Of a stretch of DNA of 40,000 nucleotides, positions 3,155 through 32,230 are shown piece after piece. The position numbers and the translations under genes are program-made. This stretch comes from Clostridia bacterium (GTDB taxonomy: Bacteria > Bacillota > Clostridia > UMGS1840 > HGM11507). Position 1 is the first letter of the stretch. Every line of letters begins with the position of its first letter. The notes beneath the pieces are model-generated. The model was not told the origin of the DNA, did no database searches, and saw only the letters and a list, made by a program, of their open reading frames with translations. Where the stretch lies: assembly GCA_017554615.1 (NCBI GenBank), contig JAFZHY010000022.1, forward strand, positions 73,331 through 113,330, in the 5' to 3' direction.

Positions 3155-3505
3155 ATGTTTTTAGATTTTTTGGTTGGAGTATTTTTAAGTTTTTTTGCAA
3201 TCTACGGTCTTGTGCAGACTATAATCAACATTTTTTCTTACATAGGGGACAGAAGAGTATTTAAAGATAAAACAGTTTATACCGTTGTTGCAGTAAAAAA
3301 TGAGGAAAACCGTGTCGAAAATATTGTTCATTCGCTGCTTTTAAAGGTGCTAAAAGACGATAACGGTGCTTACAACAGAAAAATATCAGTAATAGATTTA
3401 GGCTCAACCGATAAAACAATGGAATTACTTGAAATATTAAAAAATGATAAACCGTATCTTAATGTTTACAGTATAAAAGAATTTGTTGATGAAATAAAAA
3501 AATAG
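3155..3505 (+). CDS. Small membrane-anchored hypothetical protein resembling the N-terminal fragment of a GT2 glycosyltransferase
   Basis: - Strong RBS ggaggtg.
- N-terminal TM helix (FLVGVFLSFFAIYGLV).
- Then TVVAVKNEENRVENIVHSLL...ISVIDLGSTDKTMELLE, which mimics the first beta-alpha-beta of GT-A/GT2 enzymes (NEE...DxGSTD.T).
- The protein stops at 116 aa, before any DXD motif. Confidence 0.6.
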   Translation: MFLDFLVGVFLSFFAIYGLVQTIINIFSYIGDRRVFKDKTVYTVVAVKNEENRVENIVHSLLLKVLKDDNGAYNRKISVIDLGSTDKTMELLEILKNDKPYLNVYSIKEFVDEIKK

Positions 3506-3513
3506 AGTCCAAA

Positions 3514-3550
3514 CCTCCGAAAGCATAATACTTTCGGAGGATATTTTTTA
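3514..3550 (+). terminator. Rho-independent terminator
   Basis: 10-bp GC-containing stem cctccgaaag (3514-3523) / ctttcggagg (3531-3540), followed by ata then ttttt. Confidence 0.8.
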
Positions 3551-3586: not shown

Positions 3587-3615
3587 TTGAAATAAAATAT
3601 TTTTTTTGTTATAAT
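3587..3615 (+). promoter_or_regulatory. Near-consensus sigma-A promoter with extended -10, upstream of the SLH/PqqD cassette
   Basis: TTGAAA (3587-3592), a 17-nt spacer, then TGtTATAAT (3607-3615). It lies in an AT-rich intergenic region just after a terminator. Confidence 0.6.
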
Positions 3616-3652: not shown

Positions 3653-5242
3653 TTGTTTAAGAAAATACTTTCAATAATACTTATGATTTCATTTATATCT
3701 ATACCGGTAGCGGCAGAAGTTTCTTTTAACGATATGGATGAAAATCACTGGGCGTATCCTAATGTTATTAAACTGGTTAATGACGGAACTGTCAAAGGAT
3801 ATGAAGATGGTTCTTTTAAACCTGCAAATACTGTTACAAGAGCAGAATTTGTTAAAATGATAGGCTGTGGTCCAGACAGAAGAGACTCAGATTTTGAAGA
3901 TGTTTCAAAAACTCATTGGGCATATGAATATATTATGACATCAGGTTTTGAAACAGAAGGTAATAATTTTTATCCGTCTTTACCTATAACAAGAGGAGAA
4001 ACTATTGAACTTTTATGGAAAAGACATGGCTCAAAAACAGGAGTTTTAGCACCAAGTGTTATTACTGAGCAGTATCCTCAAAATAAAGATGCCATCTCCT
4101 GGGCGTATAACTATAAAGTTATGATAGGGGATGACGGTCTTAACTTAAGGCTTAATGATACTTTATCAAGAGCAGAAACGGCAACACTTATTATAAGAAC
4201 AAGGGAAACTGATTTTACCAAACCGCAGTCTGATTTTAAAGATATTGTTTCAGAAAGCACAATGAAAACTGTTTTTGAAAGTTATAATTTATTTGATGAC
4301 AATAGAAGTTACTCGCCCGATGCAACTATTACAAACGGCGAGATGGCAAGAGCAGCGTTAAGACTTTTAGAGGATGAATTTAATCTTACATACAGTTCTT
4401 ATCCTGTATCAACCTATTTTGACCATAAGTATTATAAAGATTTATTAATTATATTTGACCGTTGTATTAAAAAAGGTGCAGCAAATAAAGAAATGGCAGA
4501 TTTAAATGCAAATATTGAAAATACTGTTGCTGCATTTTCATTCGCTGCATTAGAAAAAGCAAATGAACTTATCACTTACGGTAATATTAATAATACATAT
4601 AAAGATGTATCGAAAGATATTGAAATCAAAAAGAATATGTTTTTAACCTTTGCGTATGAAAAAGGAATTAAACTTAAAGCAGACGATACTATCGGCGCTT
4701 TAAGGGATGTTACTCACAAGGATATAGCAGCGTTGCTTATTCAGTATGACGCACTGATTGGTTTGGAAACAATTTTTTCTACAAACAGAAACGGAATAAA
4801 TCAGTTTATTAAATATGATGCAAAATTAAATAAAAACATTTCTTTATATCCGTCAACAAAGGACAAGTTTGCCTGTATTGTAGACGGTATAGATAACAGA
4901 ATATATGAAAAGGCTATTGAGGGAGATAACCCTGAAGAAACATATGATTTTGCAAGAGAGTATGGAGAACTTTTTATTTCAAAAGTTTTAAATTATGCAT
5001 CATACTTAAGAACAAATTATGGAATTGAATCAGAAATTCTTGTTTATCCGTCTTTGGTATGGGCATCAGAAAACGAGTTCGTATTAAGAATAGAATGTAA
5101 GGTGCTTTATATTGCAAAGGATGCAACCACAACCGAAGTATTCGGTGATGACCTTGTTATACCGGTTGATGAAAAGATTGTTTCAGGTTCATCATACTTT
5201 GTAGAAGTTGCACTTAATAAAACAGATTTATTTTTTAGATAA
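3653..5242 (+). CDS. SLH-domain cell-surface protein with an uncharacterised C-terminal region
   Basis: - TTG start with RBS gaggtgg.
- Sec signal peptide (…SIPVAA/EV).
- Three SLH repeats (FNDMDENHWAYPNVIKLVNDGTVKGYEDGSFKP..; FEDVSKTHWAYEYIM..; KDAISWAYNYKVMIG..).
- About 340 aa follow with no motif I recognise. Confidence 0.85.
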   Translation: MFKKILSIILMISFISIPVAAEVSFNDMDENHWAYPNVIKLVNDGTVKGYEDGSFKPANTVTRAEFVKMIGCGPDRRDSDFEDVSKTHWAYEYIMTSGFETEGNNFYPSLPITRGETIELLWKRHGSKTGVLAPSVITEQYPQNKDAISWAYNYKVMIGDDGLNLRLNDTLSRAETATLIIRTRETDFTKPQSDFKDIVSESTMKTVFESYNLFDDNRSYSPDATITNGEMARAALRLLEDEFNLTYSSYPVSTYFDHKYYKDLLIIFDRCIKKGAANKEMADLNANIENTVAAFSFAALEKANELITYGNINNTYKDVSKDIEIKKNMFLTFAYEKGIKLKADDTIGALRDVTHKDIAALLIQYDALIGLETIFSTNRNGINQFIKYDAKLNKNISLYPSTKDKFACIVDGIDNRIYEKAIEGDNPEETYDFAREYGELFISKVLNYASYLRTNYGIESEILVYPSLVWASENEFVLRIECKVLYIAKDATTTEVFGDDLVIPVDEKIVSGSSYFVEVALNKTDLFFR

Positions 5243-5253
5243 GGAGTAAAAAT

Positions 5254-5928
5254 ATGGAGTTTTTAAAAAAGACTAACAAACTATTTGGCGTTTTAGCGTG
5301 TATTACCACAATTATAACCAATTTTGTAGTTTTATGTATCGGTACAAGAATTTTAAGAGTTGACTTTTACTATGTTACTCAGGCACTTATCCCATGTATT
5401 ATATCAAGACTTTTACTTATCGTTTGGTGCTTATATTTTGCAATGGGTTATGAGTATGACAGGTCAGCAAGAACATTCTCGAAATACCTTATTCCGTACA
5501 TATTTATAAGTATTATAGTATTGCTTATAGATAAGGAAATGGCTTATTATTTCCTTTTCCACTCTACTATTACACTTTTGGTTCTTATTCTTATGTCCAA
5601 TCTTATAAACCAGAAAAGATTTGCACTAAGAGCAAAGAACTATGCAGATAAGTTGTATCAATTAGATGCACTAATTCGTATATGCATAGCGTTTACTGTT
5701 GTACTTGTAGGGCTTAGTATTCCAATTGCGATAAGAGTTCAGTCAACTGTATATAATGTTACACTTCTTATTTCTGCAATGGTTTCTCAGGTGTTTGTTA
5801 TTGTTGGTATTTATTGTGTTGAGAGTGCTGAAAAGAAATTCCAGCAGTCTTTAATTGAGGGCGAAAATCCTAAACAGGGTGATGAATCTAAAGAAAATTC
5901 TGACGCTGATAATAATGCCGAAAAATAA
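5254..5928 (+). CDS. Polytopic membrane protein, function unknown
   Basis: 224 aa with about 5-6 hydrophobic helices. The C-terminal tail is acidic and Ser-rich (EGENPKQGDESKENSDADNNAEK). An 11-nt gap separates it from the SLH gene. I recognise no family motif. Confidence 0.6.
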   Translation: MEFLKKTNKLFGVLACITTIITNFVVLCIGTRILRVDFYYVTQALIPCIISRLLLIVWCLYFAMGYEYDRSARTFSKYLIPYIFISIIVLLIDKEMAYYFLFHSTITLLVLILMSNLINQKRFALRAKNYADKLYQLDALIRICIAFTVVLVGLSIPIAIRVQSTVYNVTLLISAMVSQVFVIVGIYCVESAEKKFQQSLIEGENPKQGDESKENSDADNNAEK

Positions 5929-5946
5929 ATTAAAAAGGTAAAAAAT

Positions 5947-6801
5947 ATGAAGATATGTATAGCGGATATTAATATCCAACTTGAAGGAGTAATGTATGAC
6001 TATTTAAAATACAGATTAAGAAACTATATTATTCCTGAAGATAAAGAATGCGATATTATTGTAAGATATAAACAAAGTGATAAAATTGATATTCCTGACG
6101 GCGAAATTATGGAAAAAAAAGATTACAAAGTCTTTGCCAAAGGGGATAACTGCTATTATTATTACGACTTATTAAAAGAAGAAACCTGTTCTGCAATAAT
6201 TCGCTTTAACGAAAACTGGACAAGTATTGATTGTGAACTGTTCGATGTTGAAGATTTGGGTGGTGCATCGCTTAATATCCGTCAGTTTAATATGATAGGG
6301 CATATTGTTAAGTATATTATGATAAACCACTTAGGAATGTCTCTTCACTCTTCTTCAATATCATATAAAAATAACGGTATTATGTTTTCTGCCGATTCGG
6401 GTACAGGTAAGTCCACTCATACAAGGCTATGGATGAAGGTTTTTGACGGAGTGGAAATAATAAATGATGATATGCCTGTTATCCGTATGGTTGACGGTGT
6501 GTGGTATTTATACGGATGCCCTTGGAGCGGTAAAACGGAAATTAACGTTAATAAAAGAGTTCCTCTTAAAGCACTTGTTTTTCTCGAAAGAGGCAAGACA
6601 AACGAAATTGAAAGAATTTATGCACCTGAATCTGTGTTTAAAATAATTTCACAAACTATTGTTGCTTCATATAAAGATATTGCAAAAAAAGCACTTGGAA
6701 ATATTTCCAAAATGGTTGAATCAGTGCCTATATACAGATTAAAATGCACAATATCTGACGAAGCACCGAAAGTGGTTGCTAAGGAACTTGATTTAATATA
6801 A
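5947..6801 (+). CDS. HPr-kinase-like (HprK C-terminal domain-like) P-loop protein
   Basis: The core LHSSSISYKNNGIMFSADSGTGKSTHTRLW...IINDDMPVIRMVDGVWYLYGCPWSGK matches the HprK-related pattern (lHas.v...g..ill.G.sG.GKST....L......l.sDD...l....g....g.P). The N-terminal 130 aa or so are unassigned. Confidence 0.7.
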   Translation: MKICIADINIQLEGVMYDYLKYRLRNYIIPEDKECDIIVRYKQSDKIDIPDGEIMEKKDYKVFAKGDNCYYYYDLLKEETCSAIIRFNENWTSIDCELFDVEDLGGASLNIRQFNMIGHIVKYIMINHLGMSLHSSSISYKNNGIMFSADSGTGKSTHTRLWMKVFDGVEIINDDMPVIRMVDGVWYLYGCPWSGKTEINVNKRVPLKALVFLERGKTNEIERIYAPESVFKIISQTIVASYKDIAKKALGNISKMVESVPIYRLKCTISDEAPKVVAKELDLI

Positions 6802-6814
6802 AAGGAGAATTTAA

Positions 6815-7081
6815 ATGAAAATAAAAGATACATTTGTTTTAAGTGAAATAGGCGGTAGTTATATAGTTATCCCGACAGGTGTTGAAACAGTAGATTTAAA
6901 CGGAATGATTACCCTTAACGAAACCGGATATTTTATGTGGAATAAAATGCAAAATGATATTACAAAAGATGAACTTATAGATGAATTTTTAAAAGAATAT
7001 AATGTTGACAGGGAAGTTGTCAGTGCCGATATAGACGAGTTTGTGAGTAGTCTTAAAACAATAGGAGCAATTTGTGAATAA
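6815..7081 (+). CDS. PqqD-family protein (RiPP recognition element-type peptide chaperone)
   Basis: 88 aa with RBS aaggag. The motif ITLNETGYFMWNKMQNDITKDELIDEFLKEYNVDREVVSADIDEFVSSLKTIGAI is the canonical PqqD winged-helix signature (LNeta..iW.......t..el...l...y.vd.e....Dv..fl..L...g.i). Confidence 0.8.
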   Translation: MKIKDTFVLSEIGGSYIVIPTGVETVDLNGMITLNETGYFMWNKMQNDITKDELIDEFLKEYNVDREVVSADIDEFVSSLKTIGAICE

Positions 7082-7532
7082 TAGAATTTATAAAACAACA
7101 AAAGAACTGGCACCGTTTATTAAAGAAATGTTGGAAAATAATAAAAGTGTTCAACTTACAGTTACAGGGAACAGTATGTTCCCTTTATTTAAACATTTAA
7201 GAGATTCGGTTACAGTAAAGAGAACTGATGATTATAAGAAATATGATATAATTCTTTATCTTAGAAAAAATGGGGAATTAGTGCTTCACCGTGTGGTAAA
7301 AGTAAAAGATGAGATTTTTTATCTTTGCGGAGATAATCAAATACTCATAGAATATCCGATTTACAAAGACCAGATTATGGGAAAAGTTACTTCCTTTGTA
7401 AGAAAAGGCAAAAGCATTAAAGCCGATAGTTTTATTAGTAAGTTTTATGCAGTTTTCTGGTGTTTTCTCCTTAAAGTAAGAAAACCTGTTATTAAAGCAT
7501 TGTTAAAAATCTGGGGGTTTATTAAAAGATGA
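7074..7532 (+). CDS. S24/S26-family serine peptidase (SipW/Sec11-like signal-peptidase fold) lacking an N-terminal membrane anchor
   Basis: - The GTG start overlaps the PqqD stop by 8 nt.
- Nucleophile box VTGNSMFPLF.
- General-base box LVLHRVVKVKD (His as in S26B, or Lys as in S24/S26A).
- There is no hydrophobic N-terminus. The only hydrophobic patch is C-terminal (FYAVFWCFLLKV). Confidence 0.7.
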   Translation: MNNRIYKTTKELAPFIKEMLENNKSVQLTVTGNSMFPLFKHLRDSVTVKRTDDYKKYDIILYLRKNGELVLHRVVKVKDEIFYLCGDNQILIEYPIYKDQIMGKVTSFVRKGKSIKADSFISKFYAVFWCFLLKVRKPVIKALLKIWGFIKR

Positions 7533-9169
7533 AAAGTAAATCTGCGCTAAAATGGATAATAAATAATTCAAAATCAGTTGTAATTCAACTGGTTTTGTTA
7601 ACATTGATAAGCGCACTGACTGCTGTCTGCCTTGTAGGTTTTACATATTTTAGTAAGCAGGTTGTAGATATTGCTACCAAGTCATCTCATGGGAATTTTT
7701 TAAATAATATCATATGTCTTATATTCCTTATTGTTTTAGAACTTATATTGCATGTTGCATACAGCCGTCTTAGTATTAAAATAAGCGGTAAACTTGAAAT
7801 GAATATTAAAACCAATGTTTTTAATAAATTGCTTAAAAAGGATATTTCGGCTATCTACAATTATCATACAGGCGATTTATTAAACAGAATTACAGGGGAT
7901 ACTTTAGTTATCACAAATTCTTTTGTTAATATAGTTCCTCTTCTTGTTTCTCTTGTTACAAGGCTTACAGGTGCATTTATAATGTTATTCTGGCTGGATA
8001 AATATTTTGCACTTATCTATCTTGTTTGTGGTCCATTATTCTTTCTTACCACTCAGATTTACAGCAAAAAAATGAAATCTCTTCATAAAAAATGTCAGGA
8101 AACTGATGGAAAGGTTAAGTCTTACATTCAGGAAGCGCTTTCAAACATTCTTGTTATTAAAGCGTTTAAAACAGAAAATGCAATATCGAAAGAAACATTG
8201 GATATTCAGAAGGTTAATTACAATTATAAATTAAAAAGAAACACTATCAGTATAGTTGCCAATATATTTGTATATATAGCATTTACATTCGGATATTATT
8301 TTGCTCTTGGCTGGGGTGCATATAAATTATCTTTAAATTTAATTTCTGTTGGTACTCTAACAGCGATGCTTCAGTTAGTATCGCAGGTGCAAACTCCTCT
8401 AAAAGGTCTTTCAGGAATAATTCCTCAGTATTTCCATGCTATTGCATCCAGTGAAAGAATTATGGAAATCGAGGATTTAAAAGAAGATGAAATATCATTC
8501 TCTGACGAATATATAAACAGTTTTAAAGACGAAATCAAGTCAATAGTATTTTCGTCTGTAAACTTTAAATATGACGATAGAAACACAGTAATTGAAGATT
8601 TCTCATATGAAATAGGTGTGGGCGAATTTGTTGCCATAAGCGGAATTTCAGGCATAGGTAAAAGTACACTTTTAAAACTTCTTTTAGGTGTTATAAAACC
8701 ACTGACAGGGGAAATTTATTTTTTACTTAAAAATGGCGAAAAAGTTTATATAAACGAAAAAACAAGAGGCTTATTCTCCTATGTTCCTCAGGGGAATATG
8801 GTTTTATCAGGCTCAATAGAAGATAATATAAGATTTTTTAACGACTCTGTATCAGAAGATGAAATTAAAAGGGTATGTAAAATTTCAAAAGTGGATGATT
8901 TTCTATGTGATTTACCTGACGGTCTTAAAACCATAGTAGGAGAAAAAGGCGTGGGGCTTTCTGAAGGGCAGATTCAAAGGGTTGCAATAGCAAGAGCGCT
9001 TATTTCTGATGCTCAGTTTTTACTGCTTGATGAAGCAACTTCTGCACTTGATGAACAAACAGAAAAAGACTTTCTATGTGAAGTTAAAAAATTACATAGT
9101 AAAACCTGTATAATTATATCCCACAAACAAGCAGCGTTTGATATATGTGATAAAACAATTAAATTTTAA
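7529..9169 (+). CDS. ABC exporter, fused TMD-NBD half-transporter
   Basis: - ATGA overlap with the peptidase stop.
- N-terminal 6-TM ABC_membrane-type region.
- Walker A GISGIGKST, signature [15 protein letters not shown], Walker B FLLLDEATSALD.
- No N-terminal C39 peptidase domain. Confidence 0.9.
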   Translation: MKSKSALKWIINNSKSVVIQLVLLTLISALTAVCLVGFTYFSKQVVDIATKSSHGNFLNNIICLIFLIVLELILHVAYSRLSIKISGKLEMNIKTNVFNKLLKKDISAIYNYHTGDLLNRITGDTLVITNSFVNIVPLLVSLVTRLTGAFIMLFWLDKYFALIYLVCGPLFFLTTQIYSKKMKSLHKKCQETDGKVKSYIQEALSNILVIKAFKTENAISKETLDIQKVNYNYKLKRNTISIVANIFVYIAFTFGYYFALGWGAYKLSLNLISVGTLTAMLQLVSQVQTPLKGLSGIIPQYFHAIASSERIMEIEDLKEDEISFSDEYINSFKDEIKSIVFSSVNFKYDDRNTVIEDFSYEIGVGEFVAISGISGIGKSTLLKLLLGVIKPLTGEIYFLLKNGEKVYINEKTRGLFSYVPQGNMVLSGSIEDNIRFFNDSVSEDEIKRVCKISKVDDFLCDLPDGLKTIVGEKGVGLSEGQIQRVAIARALISDAQFLLLDEATSALDEQTEKDFLCEVKKLHSKTCIIISHKQAAFDICDKTIKF

Positions 9170-9181
9170 CAAGGTGATATT

Positions 9182-11401
9182 TTGACCGCAAACAAATTAG
9201 AAGAATTTGAAGGCATAGTTAACGAAATTATATATACAAATGAAGAAAACGGATACACTGTGGCAGAATTTTTAACATTGGATGAAACGATTACCATTGT
9301 AGGAATTCTGCCCTACATTTACGAGGGAGAAAACCTTAAAGTGATGGGTAATTTTACAAACCATCAGGACTATGGCGAGCAGTTTAAGGTTGAATACTAT
9401 ATAAAAAATATGCCTAAAACCAAAAGTTCTATATATGCCTTTTTATCCTCAGGAATAATTCGCGGGATAAGATGCGCTACTGCTAAAAAAATAGTGGATA
9501 AATTCGGAGAAAAAACTTTGGATATTATAGAAGAAAATCCAGGGCTTTTATCTCAAATAAAGGGAATATCATATGATAAAGCCTTGCAGATTGGCGAGTC
9601 ATACAAAGAGAAAAAAAGCGTTACAGATATAATAATGTTTTTGCAAAAATATAATATATCAATTAACCTTTCGATGAAAATAAGCAAAGTATTAGGAAAT
9701 TCTCCTATAAATAAAATTGAAGATAACCCGTATATATTATGCGAAAAAATTGACGGTATATCTTTTTTAACTGCAGACTCTATTGCTTCTCAAATGGGCT
9801 TTTTAAAAAACAATGTAAAGCGTATAAAAGCAGGGGTAAAATATGTTTTTCATAAAGGCGCATTAAATGGGCATACATACCTTAATGAAGAACTGATAGT
9901 TTCGTATTGTGAGAGTCAGCTTAATGTGTCAGAAACTGAAATTATAAATGCTCTCTTTACTCTTGTTACCGAGGGGGAAATTATAAAAGAAGTAAAAGAC
10001 GAAGCACTTTATTATCTTCCTCTTTATTATATGGCAGAAAATGATATTGCTAATAAACTTCTTTTTATGAATATCACAAAATCTAAAAATTTGTTTTATG
10101 AAAGAGTGTATGATGATATATATTCTCTTAATAATATAACACTTGCCGATAAACAAAAAGATGCAGTAAAAAAAGTATTGTCTAATAAAATAACAGTTAT
10201 TACAGGAGGCCCTGGTACAGGTAAAACAACTGTTATAAATTCTATAATCTCCATATTTGAAAAGTTAGGCAAAAAGGTTACATTAACTGCTCCGACAGGC
10301 AGAGCAGCAAAAAGAATGGCGCAGATATGTAATAAAGAAGCAAAAACTATTCACAGACTATTGGAGGTAACATTTAATAATGGCTTATCAAATGATAAGT
10401 TTGTTAAGTGTGAAAAAAATCCTATATATACAGATGTTTTAATAGTTGATGAAATGAGTATGGTGGATGTTCTTATTTTTAATTCTCTTTTAAAAGCAGT
10501 AAAGAACACCACACGCCTTGTTCTTGTGGGAGATATAAACCAACTTCCGTCAGTAGGAGCAGGTAATGTATTAAAAGATATTATAAATTCAGATAAATTT
10601 AATTGTGTATATCTTGACGAAATTTACCGTCAGGAAAAAGAAAGTATGATAGTTAATAATGCACACGGTATTTTAAAGGGAGAGTATCCTGAAACATCAG
10701 GTAAAAATTCTGATTATTTTATGATTAAAAAAAGCGAAACACAAGATATAATTTCAGAAATTATTTCTCTTTGTAAGGACAGGCTTCCTAATTACTTTGA
10801 AGGAAAAAAAGAACTGTCAATTCAGGTTTTATCGCCTATGAAAAAAACTCATCTTGGCACAATATCTCTTAATAATATTTTGCAAAATGAGTTAAACCCG
10901 CCTTCCAAATATAAAAAAGAAAAACAGTGGGGAAAATATATCTTAAGAGAGGGCGATAAAATAATTCAGACAAGAAATAACTATGATATCCCATGGCAAA
11001 CTCCGTGGGGAGAAAAAGGTATCGGTGTATTTAACGGAGATACAGGGACAATAAAAGAAATAAATAATAAAGAAAAATATATTGTTATTGAATTTTATGA
11101 CGGGAAAATTGCAGAATATGAATTTTCAAATCTTGAAGATATAGACCTTGCATACGCTATAACTGTTCATAAAAGTCAGGGTAGTGAGTTTGACGCTATA
11201 ATTATTCCGTCATATTACGGGCCTAAAAATCTTATGTACAGAAATTTATTCTATACAGCACTTACAAGGGCTAAAAGCCTTGTTGTAGTAGTTGGAAGCG
11301 AAAATGTCGTAAAACTTATGATTGATAATAACATTGAAGCAAAAAGACTTACTTCCTTAAAGGATAAAATAATAAATAACAAAATTTTTGGAGCAGAGTA
11401 A
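9182..11401 (+). CDS. recD2: RecD2-type SF1B ATP-dependent DNA helicase
   Basis: 739 aa with a TTG start and RBS aaggtga. Motifs: Walker A GGPGTGKTT, LIVDEMSMVD, VGDINQLPSVGAG, ITVHKSQGSEF. The N-terminal HhH region is typical of Firmicutes RecD2. Confidence 0.9.
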   Translation: MTANKLEEFEGIVNEIIYTNEENGYTVAEFLTLDETITIVGILPYIYEGENLKVMGNFTNHQDYGEQFKVEYYIKNMPKTKSSIYAFLSSGIIRGIRCATAKKIVDKFGEKTLDIIEENPGLLSQIKGISYDKALQIGESYKEKKSVTDIIMFLQKYNISINLSMKISKVLGNSPINKIEDNPYILCEKIDGISFLTADSIASQMGFLKNNVKRIKAGVKYVFHKGALNGHTYLNEELIVSYCESQLNVSETEIINALFTLVTEGEIIKEVKDEALYYLPLYYMAENDIANKLLFMNITKSKNLFYERVYDDIYSLNNITLADKQKDAVKKVLSNKITVITGGPGTGKTTVINSIISIFEKLGKKVTLTAPTGRAAKRMAQICNKEAKTIHRLLEVTFNNGLSNDKFVKCEKNPIYTDVLIVDEMSMVDVLIFNSLLKAVKNTTRLVLVGDINQLPSVGAGNVLKDIINSDKFNCVYLDEIYRQEKESMIVNNAHGILKGEYPETSGKNSDYFMIKKSETQDIISEIISLCKDRLPNYFEGKKELSIQVLSPMKKTHLGTISLNNILQNELNPPSKYKKEKQWGKYILREGDKIIQTRNNYDIPWQTPWGEKGIGVFNGDTGTIKEINNKEKYIVIEFYDGKIAEYEFSNLEDIDLAYAITVHKSQGSEFDAIIIPSYYGPKNLMYRNLFYTALTRAKSLVVVVGSENVVKLMIDNNIEAKRLTSLKDKIINNKIFGAE

Positions 11402-31920: not shown

Positions 31921-32230
31921 TGATATTATCCTGAATTTTTTTTCAGGTTGATATACCAATCCGTACTAGCCGGGGAGTTAGCGGTGCCCTGTACCTGCAA
32001 TCCGCTATAGCAGGGGTGAATATCATTATGAGGGTATTGATAGTGTGGCTGGTGTTTGTAAGTAGTGATGAAGATTTGGTCTTATGCAATACTGTATTGT
32101 GAACCTCGTCAGGTCGGGAACGAAGCAGCGATAAGCAATTTCGTGTATGTGCCCTAAGGTAGCCGAATCCGAGCCGGCTGCAAAAGTTCCGCATATTATT
32201 GATATTCGAGTTCTGATTGTACGGTTTTTT
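31921..32230 (+). ncRNA. ffs: Signal recognition particle RNA, long Bacillus-type (scRNA/ffs); the 5' boundary is uncertain (31921-31960)
   Basis: - A GC-rich island sits in AT-rich DNA.
- gttagcggtgccctgtacctgcaatccgctatagcagggg closely matches my recollection of the B. subtilis scRNA 5' region (GGUAGCGGUGCCCUGUACCUGCAAUCCGCU).
- gtcaggtcgggaacgaagcagc corresponds to the domain IV motif GUCAGGUCCGGAAGGAAGCAGC.
- ccgtac (31961-31966) pairs with gtacgg (32219-32224), followed by T6.
- Classic position immediately upstream of dnaX. Confidence 0.85.

Follow-up and report, generated by a model that had tools for sequence, protein, structure and literature searches.

A four-gene cassette in a Clostridial genome as a probable relative of the linear polyphosphorylated peptide pathway

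The system described here is a cassette of four genes, encoding an HprK-like kinase, a PqqD-type recognition element, a serine peptidase, and an ATP-binding cassette (ABC) exporter, in a 40,000-nt stretch of DNA (hereafter the window) from a Clostridia metagenome-assembled genome (MAG; GenBank assembly GCA_017554615.1, contig JAFZHY010000022.1, positions 73,331–113,330 of the forward strand). We consider this locus likely to represent a Clostridial relative of the pathway for linear polyphosphorylated peptides (LPPs), a class of peptides that are synthesized by the ribosome and modified after translation (RiPPs) published in May 2026 (Popov et al., Nat Commun; PMC13381572). This assignment draws on gene content and order, protein folds, catalytic residues, conservation of the gene set across species, and precursor genes in relatives, all of which were observed in this study. 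The first-pass annotation of the window did not recognize the cassette as a described class. It can no longer be regarded as undescribed, because the 2026 paper showed a phosphorylated linear peptide for a distant homologue, and the set thus matches a class of pathway that is now described. The four open reading frames (ORFs), as given in the ORF list, are:

5947–6801, + strand: kinase ORF, 284 aa
6815–7081, + strand: PqqD-type recognition element ORF, 88 aa
7074–7532, + strand: peptidase ORF, 152 aa
7529–9169, + strand: exporter ORF, 546 aa

The kinase and PqqD genes were separated by a 13-nt gap carrying an AAGGAG ribosome-binding site, the PqqD and peptidase genes overlapped by 8 nt (GTGAATAA), and the peptidase and exporter genes overlapped by 4 nt (ATGA), which agreed in coordinates and overlaps with the tight packing described earlier (junctions of 13, −8, and −4 nt).

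The discovery of LPPs started from an archaeal-type signal peptidase in lasso loci of Bacilli, and the class was defined on 126 mostly Bacilli loci, with clusters often lying in capsule loci (PMC13381572). When lppA-K-B-S-D-N of Paenibacillus alginolyticus DSM5050 was expressed in B. subtilis, one to four phosphates were found on core Ser3 in an LppK-dependent manner, and LppS removed the leader after Thr-1, with S29, H68, and D93 each being essential and with presentation of the precursor by the recognition element LppB being required (PMC13381572). LppD is an MsbA-like pump, deletion of lppN left the detected LPP products unchanged, precursors and recognition elements are sometimes located ‘elsewhere in the genome’, and the final product and biological role of LPPs remain unknown (PMC13381572).

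The four cassette proteins and the proposed pathway

The 284-aa protein gave zero matches in our local Pfam copy, and a sequence search against solved structures returned nothing useful, so that a fold search was needed. Precomputed matches placed the protein in PF27840 ‘ScmC’, a newer Pfam family, and it matched TIGR04249, TIGR04352, and TIGR04355, all under cut-off, as a weak similarity to ScmC and to HprK-related kinases A/B. These three models were grouped as ‘HprK kinase’ in the LPP study (PMC13381572). The AlphaFold model of the protein (mean predicted local distance difference test score 94) had ATP-dependent phosphoenolpyruvate carboxykinase (PEPCK) and HprK/P as its top Foldseek matches (E ~ 1e-6, probability 1.00), and an alignment of 30 homologues showed that the H-x-S motif, the P-loop SGTGKST, and the NDD motif were all invariant, the invariant residues including H134, S136, G152–T157 (P-loop), N173–D175, and W193. 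The designation ‘HprK-like’ stands because of the fold match together with the invariant P-loop and NDD motifs, and the protein is predicted to be an LppK-like peptide kinase of HprK/PEPCK fold, an assignment made through shared models and fold.

The 88-aa protein matched PqqD (PF05402, E = 3.9e-16); its nearest solved relative was the lasso RiPP recognition element (RRE) TbiB1, and its match with the LppB structure (PDB entry 9x8z) was weak (E = 0.23). Residues N35 and D72 aligned with the leader-binding residues N33 and D70 of LppB, with Asn conserved at the former position in 63 of 64 RRE relatives and Asp at the latter in 56 of 64, as opposed to Gly/Gln at these positions in the WxxP-specific, paeninodin-type PbaB1. 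Judged by these residues, the protein appears to be a discrete RRE of the LppB kind.

For the 152-aa protein, matches were obtained with Peptidase_S24 (E = 5e-8) and, as the best match, with the archaeal-type signal peptidase I model TIGR02228 (E = 8e-9). It aligned over its full length with LppS (WP_029196374.1; 28% identity, E = 5e-15) and more closely with an Anaerocolumna peptidase (WP_073589069.1; 37% identity, E = 4e-29), which belongs to the small cluster 4 of the sequence similarity network (SSN) in the LPP paper, a cluster that was not studied there (PMC13381572). Residues S34, H72, and D87 were invariant (45/45 relatives), and the position of the essential LppS D93 was occupied by Glu in the window peptidase and in 44 of the 45 relatives, a conservative change. 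No 19-residue window with hydrophobicity above 1.5 was present and hence no membrane anchor, and therefore the active site should be cytoplasmic, as a leader peptidase requires. The protein is thus best described as a putative LppS-like leader peptidase without anchor, of the SipW/archaeal signal peptidase I type.

The exporter consisted of an ABC_membrane domain (residues 22–291, E = 6e-38) followed by an ABC_tran domain (residues 356–505, E = 4e-23), with no C39 peptidase domain at the N-terminus, and its top NCBIfam matches were TIGR02204 (E = 1.6e-79) and TIGR02203 (E = 7e-72). From this domain content, it is predicted to be an LppD-like, MsbA-type half-transporter with a transmembrane and a nucleotide-binding domain. 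In the LPP paper, TIGR02228 stands for ‘SpI’, and TIGR02203 and TIGR02204 stand for ‘MsbA transporter’ (PMC13381572).

In the proposed pathway, a small precursor made by ribosomes would be bound in the cytoplasm by the RRE, through the YxxPxL leader at the precursor's N-terminus, and the HprK-fold kinase would use ATP to phosphorylate Ser/Thr of the core. The anchor-less SipW-type serine peptidase (Ser34/His72 plus an acidic third residue) would cut off the leader while the RRE presents the precursor, and the MsbA-like half-transporter, presumably as a dimer, would export the anionic linear peptide. By analogy, the cassette would carry out LPP chemistry, including phosphorylation, this chemistry coming from the literature on a homologue only 28% identical in the peptidase.

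Pfam scans of the large ORFs in the window revealed no lasso cyclase, B2 protease, radical SAM, YcaO, LanM-type, or NTP_transf_5 (PF14907) protein, and precomputed Pfam annotations showed none of these enzyme types in the 9 kb upstream of the window, so that ~49 kb was covered altogether. The first-pass annotation had named the four protein types correctly (an HprK-like P-loop protein, a PqqD-family domain, an S24/S26 peptidase, and an exporter without a C39 domain), and its list of absent lasso, radical SAM, YcaO, and LanM-type enzymes was borne out, as were its reference to paeninodin-type lasso clusters and its view that recognition, modification, leader removal, and export together follow RiPP logic, as they do in the LPP pathway. 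Its tentative proposal of an exported, phosphorylated linear peptide matches the experimental result for the homologous lppAKBSDN cluster (PMC13381572). Its description of the cassette as having no core-modifying enzyme has to be corrected, the kinase being the class-defining modifying enzyme in LPPs.

Conservation of the gene set and precursor genes in relatives

Relatives were collected in a scan using one genome per species, in which at least 595 species genomes had a kinase relative; 80 loci were kept, nearly all from Clostridia MAGs (Oscillospiraceae, Acutalibacteraceae, and others). Together with one Acetivibrio locus, 81 distinct loci (numbered with the prefix L below) were analyzed, 44 of which have at least 4.5 kb on both sides of the kinase gene. 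Within these 44 loci, the genes accompanying the kinase were distributed as follows:

PqqD present: 36/44 loci
Exporter present: 27/44 loci
Peptidase present: 24/44 loci
All four genes present: 21/44 loci

The usual order in relatives was kinase-PqqD-peptidase-exporter. The gene set is thus co-conserved and the adjacency of the four genes is not due to chance. A kinase profile search of the full library yielded 16,460 clusters at 50% identity with E ≤ 1e-3 and 3,605 with E ≤ 1e-30; HprK-like proteins of other kinds, among them lasso-associated ones, are probably included in the looser count. The module is therefore widespread in anaerobic gut and rumen Clostridia. Recurrent neighbors in the related loci were genes for a PF14907 nucleotidyltransferase, Wzz or a Wzz-tyrosine-kinase, CpsB, LCP, and MatE, the NTP_transf_5 gene (lppN type) being present in 8 of the 81 loci.

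Clustering of small ORFs near the cassettes yielded two precursor families, both starting with MK.Y.KP.L/I and mostly encoded 150–530 nt upstream of the kinase gene. Members of the first family have 49–66 aa (e.g., MKTYVKPIIDVVELSVRENIAKLP...) and those of the second 34–62 aa (e.g., MKKYIAPELEIMEFELEDVLTISYSDGDIDDGWY), with two copies of the latter in some loci. A hidden Markov model (HMM) of the leader identified one or two small leader-bearing (MK.Y.KP.L) ORFs in 19 of the 81 loci, and more were found from the side of the SLH gene described below. No lasso cyclase or B2 protease was present in the precursor-bearing loci that were checked by Pfam. Because these precursors carry a YxxPxL leader, the motif of lasso-type RREs, and are accompanied by neither cyclase nor B2, the kinase-RRE-peptidase-exporter family is established as a RiPP pathway. 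The Clostridial systems have a precursor family different from the Bacilli type. The second family, with cores such as SYSDGDIDDGWY and Asp/Glu at positions 7–9, was also considered as a marker of true lasso clusters; this was rejected, the neighbors being cohesin, DUF559, and unknown proteins, with no cyclase or B2. In eight loci with a sister arrangement (L014, L032, L037, L047, L087, L088, L090, and L091), a secreted protein of ~290–365 aa without family assignment was encoded beside the precursor gene, in most of them between precursor and exporter (e.g., L087:5497–6594); the window has no such gene.

A candidate precursor was found outside the window. Locus L084 differs from the window at 14 of 11,610 bases, is 20.8 kb long, and extends 9.2 kb further upstream, where the following gene had been called:

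L084:3616–3762, corresponding to window positions ~−5593 to −5447, + strand: candidate precursor of 48 aa, MKEYIKPELKLNDIITTECTSAFSFDEWEDIEGLFSGITTFGLKSTKK, with leader MKEYIKPEL

This gene is located 11.5 kb upstream of the kinase gene on the same strand, 5.4 kb before the start of the window, and has signals of its own, namely a consensus promoter (TTGACA-17-TATAAT), an AAGGAG ribosome-binding site, and a hairpin terminator. It was the only significant match of the leader HMM in L084 (E = 0.0055). Between two strains, the gene differed by 13.6% at the nucleotide level, through both synonymous and non-synonymous changes, with the frame intact and the leader nearly unchanged, compared with 0.0–2.4% for the 18 other genes compared. 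Such a hypervariable, unlinked precursor would suggest diversification at the strain level. In an alignment anchored on the leader Tyr, an acidic residue at Y+14 was common to LppA (F-E-T), both Clostridial families, and the 48-aa peptide (T-E-C). Because LppA is cut after Y+15, the leader of the 48-aa peptide may end near residue 19–20, which would leave an acidic core of ~28 aa starting with Ser/Thr. The chances that this peptide is the substrate of the cassette are about even.

Several features of individual relatives are also recorded here. In L086 and L089, PqqD, peptidase, and exporter genes are divergent from an SLH gene, with neither a kinase nor a recognizable precursor gene within 8 kb. 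Because of this, either the modules of the system can be split across a genome or the kinase is optional. A short-form kinase gene and a PqqD gene directly follow three tandem genes with a pilin-like start (KGFTLVELMIVV; e.g., L075:3545–4018) in L075, L076, and L083, where the type IV pilin reading is by motif alone, and secretin-N/LysM and PilT-like genes lie downstream in L045, L050, L052, and L078. Acetivibrio sp. MSJd-27 (GCA_018918095.1; L001–L003 group) contains the same kinase-RRE-peptidase-exporter cassette with SLH and multi-transmembrane genes alongside on the opposite strand. In this organism the gene of a 300-aa radical SAM protein lies downstream of the exporter gene, ~210 nt away (L002:11889–12791), a position at which the other loci do not have it. 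We take Acetivibrio sp. MSJd-27 to be a cultured isolate, and it may allow experiments.

Operon extent and the SLH wall protein

The following features were found upstream of the cassette:

3514..3540, + strand: terminator-like hairpin closing the preceding gene and marking the upstream operon boundary (10-bp stem with 6 G-C pairs, then a T run)
3587..3615, + strand: top-ranked sigma-70-like promoter match (TTGAAA-17-TATAAT, TG before the second hexamer, 11/12 matches)
3653..5242, + strand: gene of a secreted SLH-domain protein, 529 aa (SLH PF00395, E = 1e-21)
5254..5928, + strand: gene of a protein with ~6 transmembrane (TM) segments by hydropathy, 224 aa, in no Pfam/NCBIfam family

Six genes, the SLH and 6-TM genes followed by the four cassette genes, therefore stand in a row from 3653 to 9169 with gaps of −8 to +18 nt, and no terminator-like site was found after any gene end from 3653 through 9169. 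The site at 3587–3615 is the probable promoter of the operon, although it was identified only by its agreement with the consensus, and shuffled sequence contained at least as many such sites as the region did. The SLH and 6-TM genes are probably part of the cassette operon because they lie directly upstream behind this single promoter-like site. The feature had first been delimited to 5947–9169, which holds for the four genes; the transcription unit as a whole probably begins earlier, at 3653.

The model of the SLH protein (predicted score 90) comprised a signal peptide, an SLH trimer, a region of SLH-pattern repeats (residues ~195–370), in which the helix-strand pattern of secondary structure seen in the SLH triplet recurs, and a C-terminal alpha/beta domain (~372–529). 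The SLH trimer alone matched solved structures, namely those of Sap and SpaA, which are binders of pyruvylated secondary cell-wall polymer, and the C-terminal domain had no relative among solved structures. The family of this C-terminal domain adjoins the kinase in 16 species loci. When sampling was started from the SLH side, all six homologues (38–44% identical, on unrelated contigs) adjoined a PqqD gene, five of the six loci also contained the peptidase and exporter, and three had the full set in the order PqqD-peptidase-exporter-(~350-aa secreted protein)-precursor-kinase-SLH. The SLH protein is thus a conserved accessory of the Clostridial variant; SLH domains occurred in only 9 of the 126 neighborhoods of the Bacilli LPP set (PMC13381572).

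The 224-aa protein has an acidic C-terminal tail following its ~6 TM segments, and its homologues were found next to an SLH gene only in the closest loci (L001–L005), a sister clade having a different 5-TM protein. Roles of the 6-TM protein in immunity, anchoring, or transport are guesses. Both proteins would act after export at the wall or membrane, in peptide binding, retention, immunity, or further handling. A stretch of the SLH protein, ‘WAYPNV’, was considered as a means by which the RRE might take this protein as substrate and was rejected, the stretch being SLH consensus and its Pro not being conserved among 24 homologues. The SLH and 6-TM genes were 2.4% divergent (window 3653–5928 vs. 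L084/L085), next after the 48-aa gene, compared with ~1.35% for the locus overall; the sample is small and this may mean nothing. The PqqD gene was identical between the two strains compared.

We tentatively propose that gut and rumen Clostridia harbor a very large, unstudied LPP-like branch, in which the SLH protein (plus the 6-TM protein in this clade) belongs to the core and the precursor can be unlinked and diversifies ~10 times faster than the genome around it, and in which the product would be a strain-specific polyanionic peptide held at or acting on the wall through the SLH protein, and not a free antibiotic; as a whole this proposal must be considered doubtful. If true, a wall-held peptide could serve in surface decoration, kin recognition, or contact-range antagonism, and co-evolution of the SLH and 6-TM genes with the peptide may be taking place. 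Since the constant partner is an SLH protein, and proteins of its kind are binders of secondary cell-wall polymer, a function at the wall can be tested.

Downstream of the cassette, a RecD2-type helicase gene (9182–11401) begins 12 nt past the exporter stop, an adjacency also seen in L004. Because the gap between exporter and RecD2 gene contains no terminator, RecD2 may be co-transcribed with the cassette. Elsewhere, the window is of housekeeping character, with genes for an amino-acid ABC transporter, RNase R, an energy-coupling factor transporter, Rho, RqcH, glycolysis, and DnaX. An Rfam scan detected no regulatory RNA at the cassette locus and identified a large bacterial signal recognition particle RNA (RF01854, 179 bits) at 31961–32224 (+), just upstream of dnaX. 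A 116-aa ORF at 3155–3505, also called as a gene in L084/L085, has an N-terminal hydrophobic segment, resembles family-2 glycosyltransferases only weakly and at their start (E = 1e-3), and has a terminator of its own downstream.

Alternative readings and comparison with known systems

A number of observations weigh against an LPP-like pathway. No leader-bearing ORF was found in the 40-kb window by HMM (best E = 0.67) or by regular-expression scans; L001, L004, and L005, the syntenic loci closest to it, gave none by the same two means either. There is thus no precursor in the window or within the 2–5 kb search range used in the LPP paper. The match of the 48-aa candidate with the leader profile covers only its first 9 residues, the Px9Fx[T/A] motif known from Bacilli LppA is missing from the peptide, and a homology search for it outside its own species returned no homologues, only two variants from the same species. 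Among the cassette proteins, the peptidase has low identity (28%) to the characterized system, the RRE is no closer to LppB (pairwise E = 3e-5) than to the lasso RRE PbaB1 (E = 5e-6), and the RRE beside the Anaerocolumna peptidase was listed as ‘other’ and not as an LPP RRE (PMC13381572). An lppN gene is absent from the window and the 9 kb upstream of it. In another reading, the precursor would be one other than the 48-aa ORF, encoded elsewhere or occurring as several unlinked peptides, or enzymes encoded elsewhere (such as a nucleotidyltransferase or glycosyltransferases) would modify the peptide further, so that the product would not be a simple phosphopeptide. Only ~49 kb of the genome is visible, the relatives often lie in polysaccharide loci with Wzz, CpsB, LCP, and NTP_transf_5 genes, and in the LPP paper, too, there are precursors and RREs ‘elsewhere in the genome’ and a final product that was not identified (PMC13381572). 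We regard this as possible, though on balance unlikely, since no ORF other than the 48-aa one bears a leader in the region seen, this ORF carries the signals expected of a small gene that is expressed, and a second RRE is not present nearby.

Maturation of an envelope protein, which the first-pass annotation had offered as its second option, would have the PqqD-guided peptidase process the SLH protein or another wall protein and the kinase modify that same protein. The SLH gene does lie directly upstream of the kinase gene behind a shared promoter-like site, its family stands next to PqqD in 6/6 sampled homologues and in 16 kinase-centered loci, and the SLH loci L086 and L089 have no kinase or small precursor within 8 kb. 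The closest signal peptidase with a name is SipW, and in Bacillus subtilis this enzyme is devoted to matrix proteins, which also speaks for such a role. Yet the signal peptide of the SLH protein is an ordinary one of the Sec type, and the protein has no conserved YxxP motif, the Pro of ‘WAYPNV’ being variable. The peptidase lacks a hydrophobic segment and would act in the cytoplasm, a Sec substrate would need no ABC exporter, and in sister loci a bona fide small precursor occurs along with the SLH gene. The tested homologue LppS, moreover, cleaves an RRE-bound leader peptide (PMC13381572). As stated, this option is improbable; what stands of it is that the envelope matters, the SLH protein being tightly linked to the cassette. 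Even less probable, to the point of being very hard to credit, is that the cassette is left over from a paeninodin-type lasso cluster in decay, its cyclase, B2 protease, and precursor having been lost, and yields no product any longer. The kinase, RRE, exporter, and, in relatives, nucleotidyltransferase do form the accessory set of Firmicutes lasso clusters, and the window contains no precursor. Decay is difficult to reconcile with four intact ORFs at overlapping or close junctions, invariant catalytic residues, an RRE gene identical in two strains that differ by 1.35% overall, a four-gene set found in 21 of 44 complete species loci, and a kinase family of thousands of clusters. In Paenibacillus, furthermore, the set without cyclase was shown to be functional (PMC13381572). 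An LPP-like pathway thus remains the preferred reading.

Compared with the published LPP clusters, the window has the same order, K-B-S-D corresponding to lppK-lppB-lppS-lppD, with no macrolactam cyclase in either, and its proteins match the models by which the core was defined. The RRE retains the Asn/Asp pair for the YxxP leader, the peptidase retains the tested Ser and His, and the relatives have precursors with YxxPxL leaders, often beside polysaccharide genes. The two differ in that the window comes from a Clostridia MAG and not from Bacilli, that its locus lies among housekeeping genes and not in a capsule locus, and that lppN is missing. The window peptidase is closer to the unstudied SSN cluster 4 and has Glu at the D93 position, no precursor gene is adjacent to the cassette, the leaders of Clostridial precursors are without Px9Fx[T/A], and the SLH and 6-TM genes lie directly upstream, probably in the same operon.

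With the paeninodin-type lasso clusters (padeA-C-B1-B2-D-K; Zhu et al., 2016, as cited in PMC7533575 and PMC13381572), the cassette shares an HprK-like kinase, a PqqD-type B1 protein, an ABC exporter, and the [Y/W]xxPx[L/V] leader motif. It differs from them in having no asparagine-synthetase-like cyclase and no transglutaminase-like B2 protein, leader removal falling to the serine peptidase, and in the Asn/Asp of its RRE compared with the Gly/Gln of PbaB1. The SynChlorMet cassette (ScmC/ScmD with radical SAM proteins ScmE/ScmF; TIGR04249, TIGR04248) likewise combines an ScmC-family HprK-like protein with a PqqD-like protein, and the window kinase belongs to PF27840 ‘ScmC’ with TIGR04249 as its best NCBIfam match. 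Here, however, the scores were far below the equivalog cut-offs (27.3 vs. 125 bits for ScmC and 14.8 vs. 100 for ScmD), and the window has a peptidase and an exporter and no radical SAM/SPASM genes nearby. SipW and the archaeal-type signal peptidases I (TIGR02228, NF046067) share the SM-P and HR motifs of the window peptidase (GNSMFP, LHRV), whereas the latter has no TM anchor, is encoded with an RRE and a kinase, and scored below the cut-offs (35.6 vs. 51.85 bits for TIGR02228 and 20.5 vs. 190 for SipW). Against this background, the novelty of the variant lies in a large branch in Clostridia whose precursor families are its own, in the absence of a nucleotidyltransferase, in a candidate precursor that is unlinked and evolves fast, and in a constant SLH partner.

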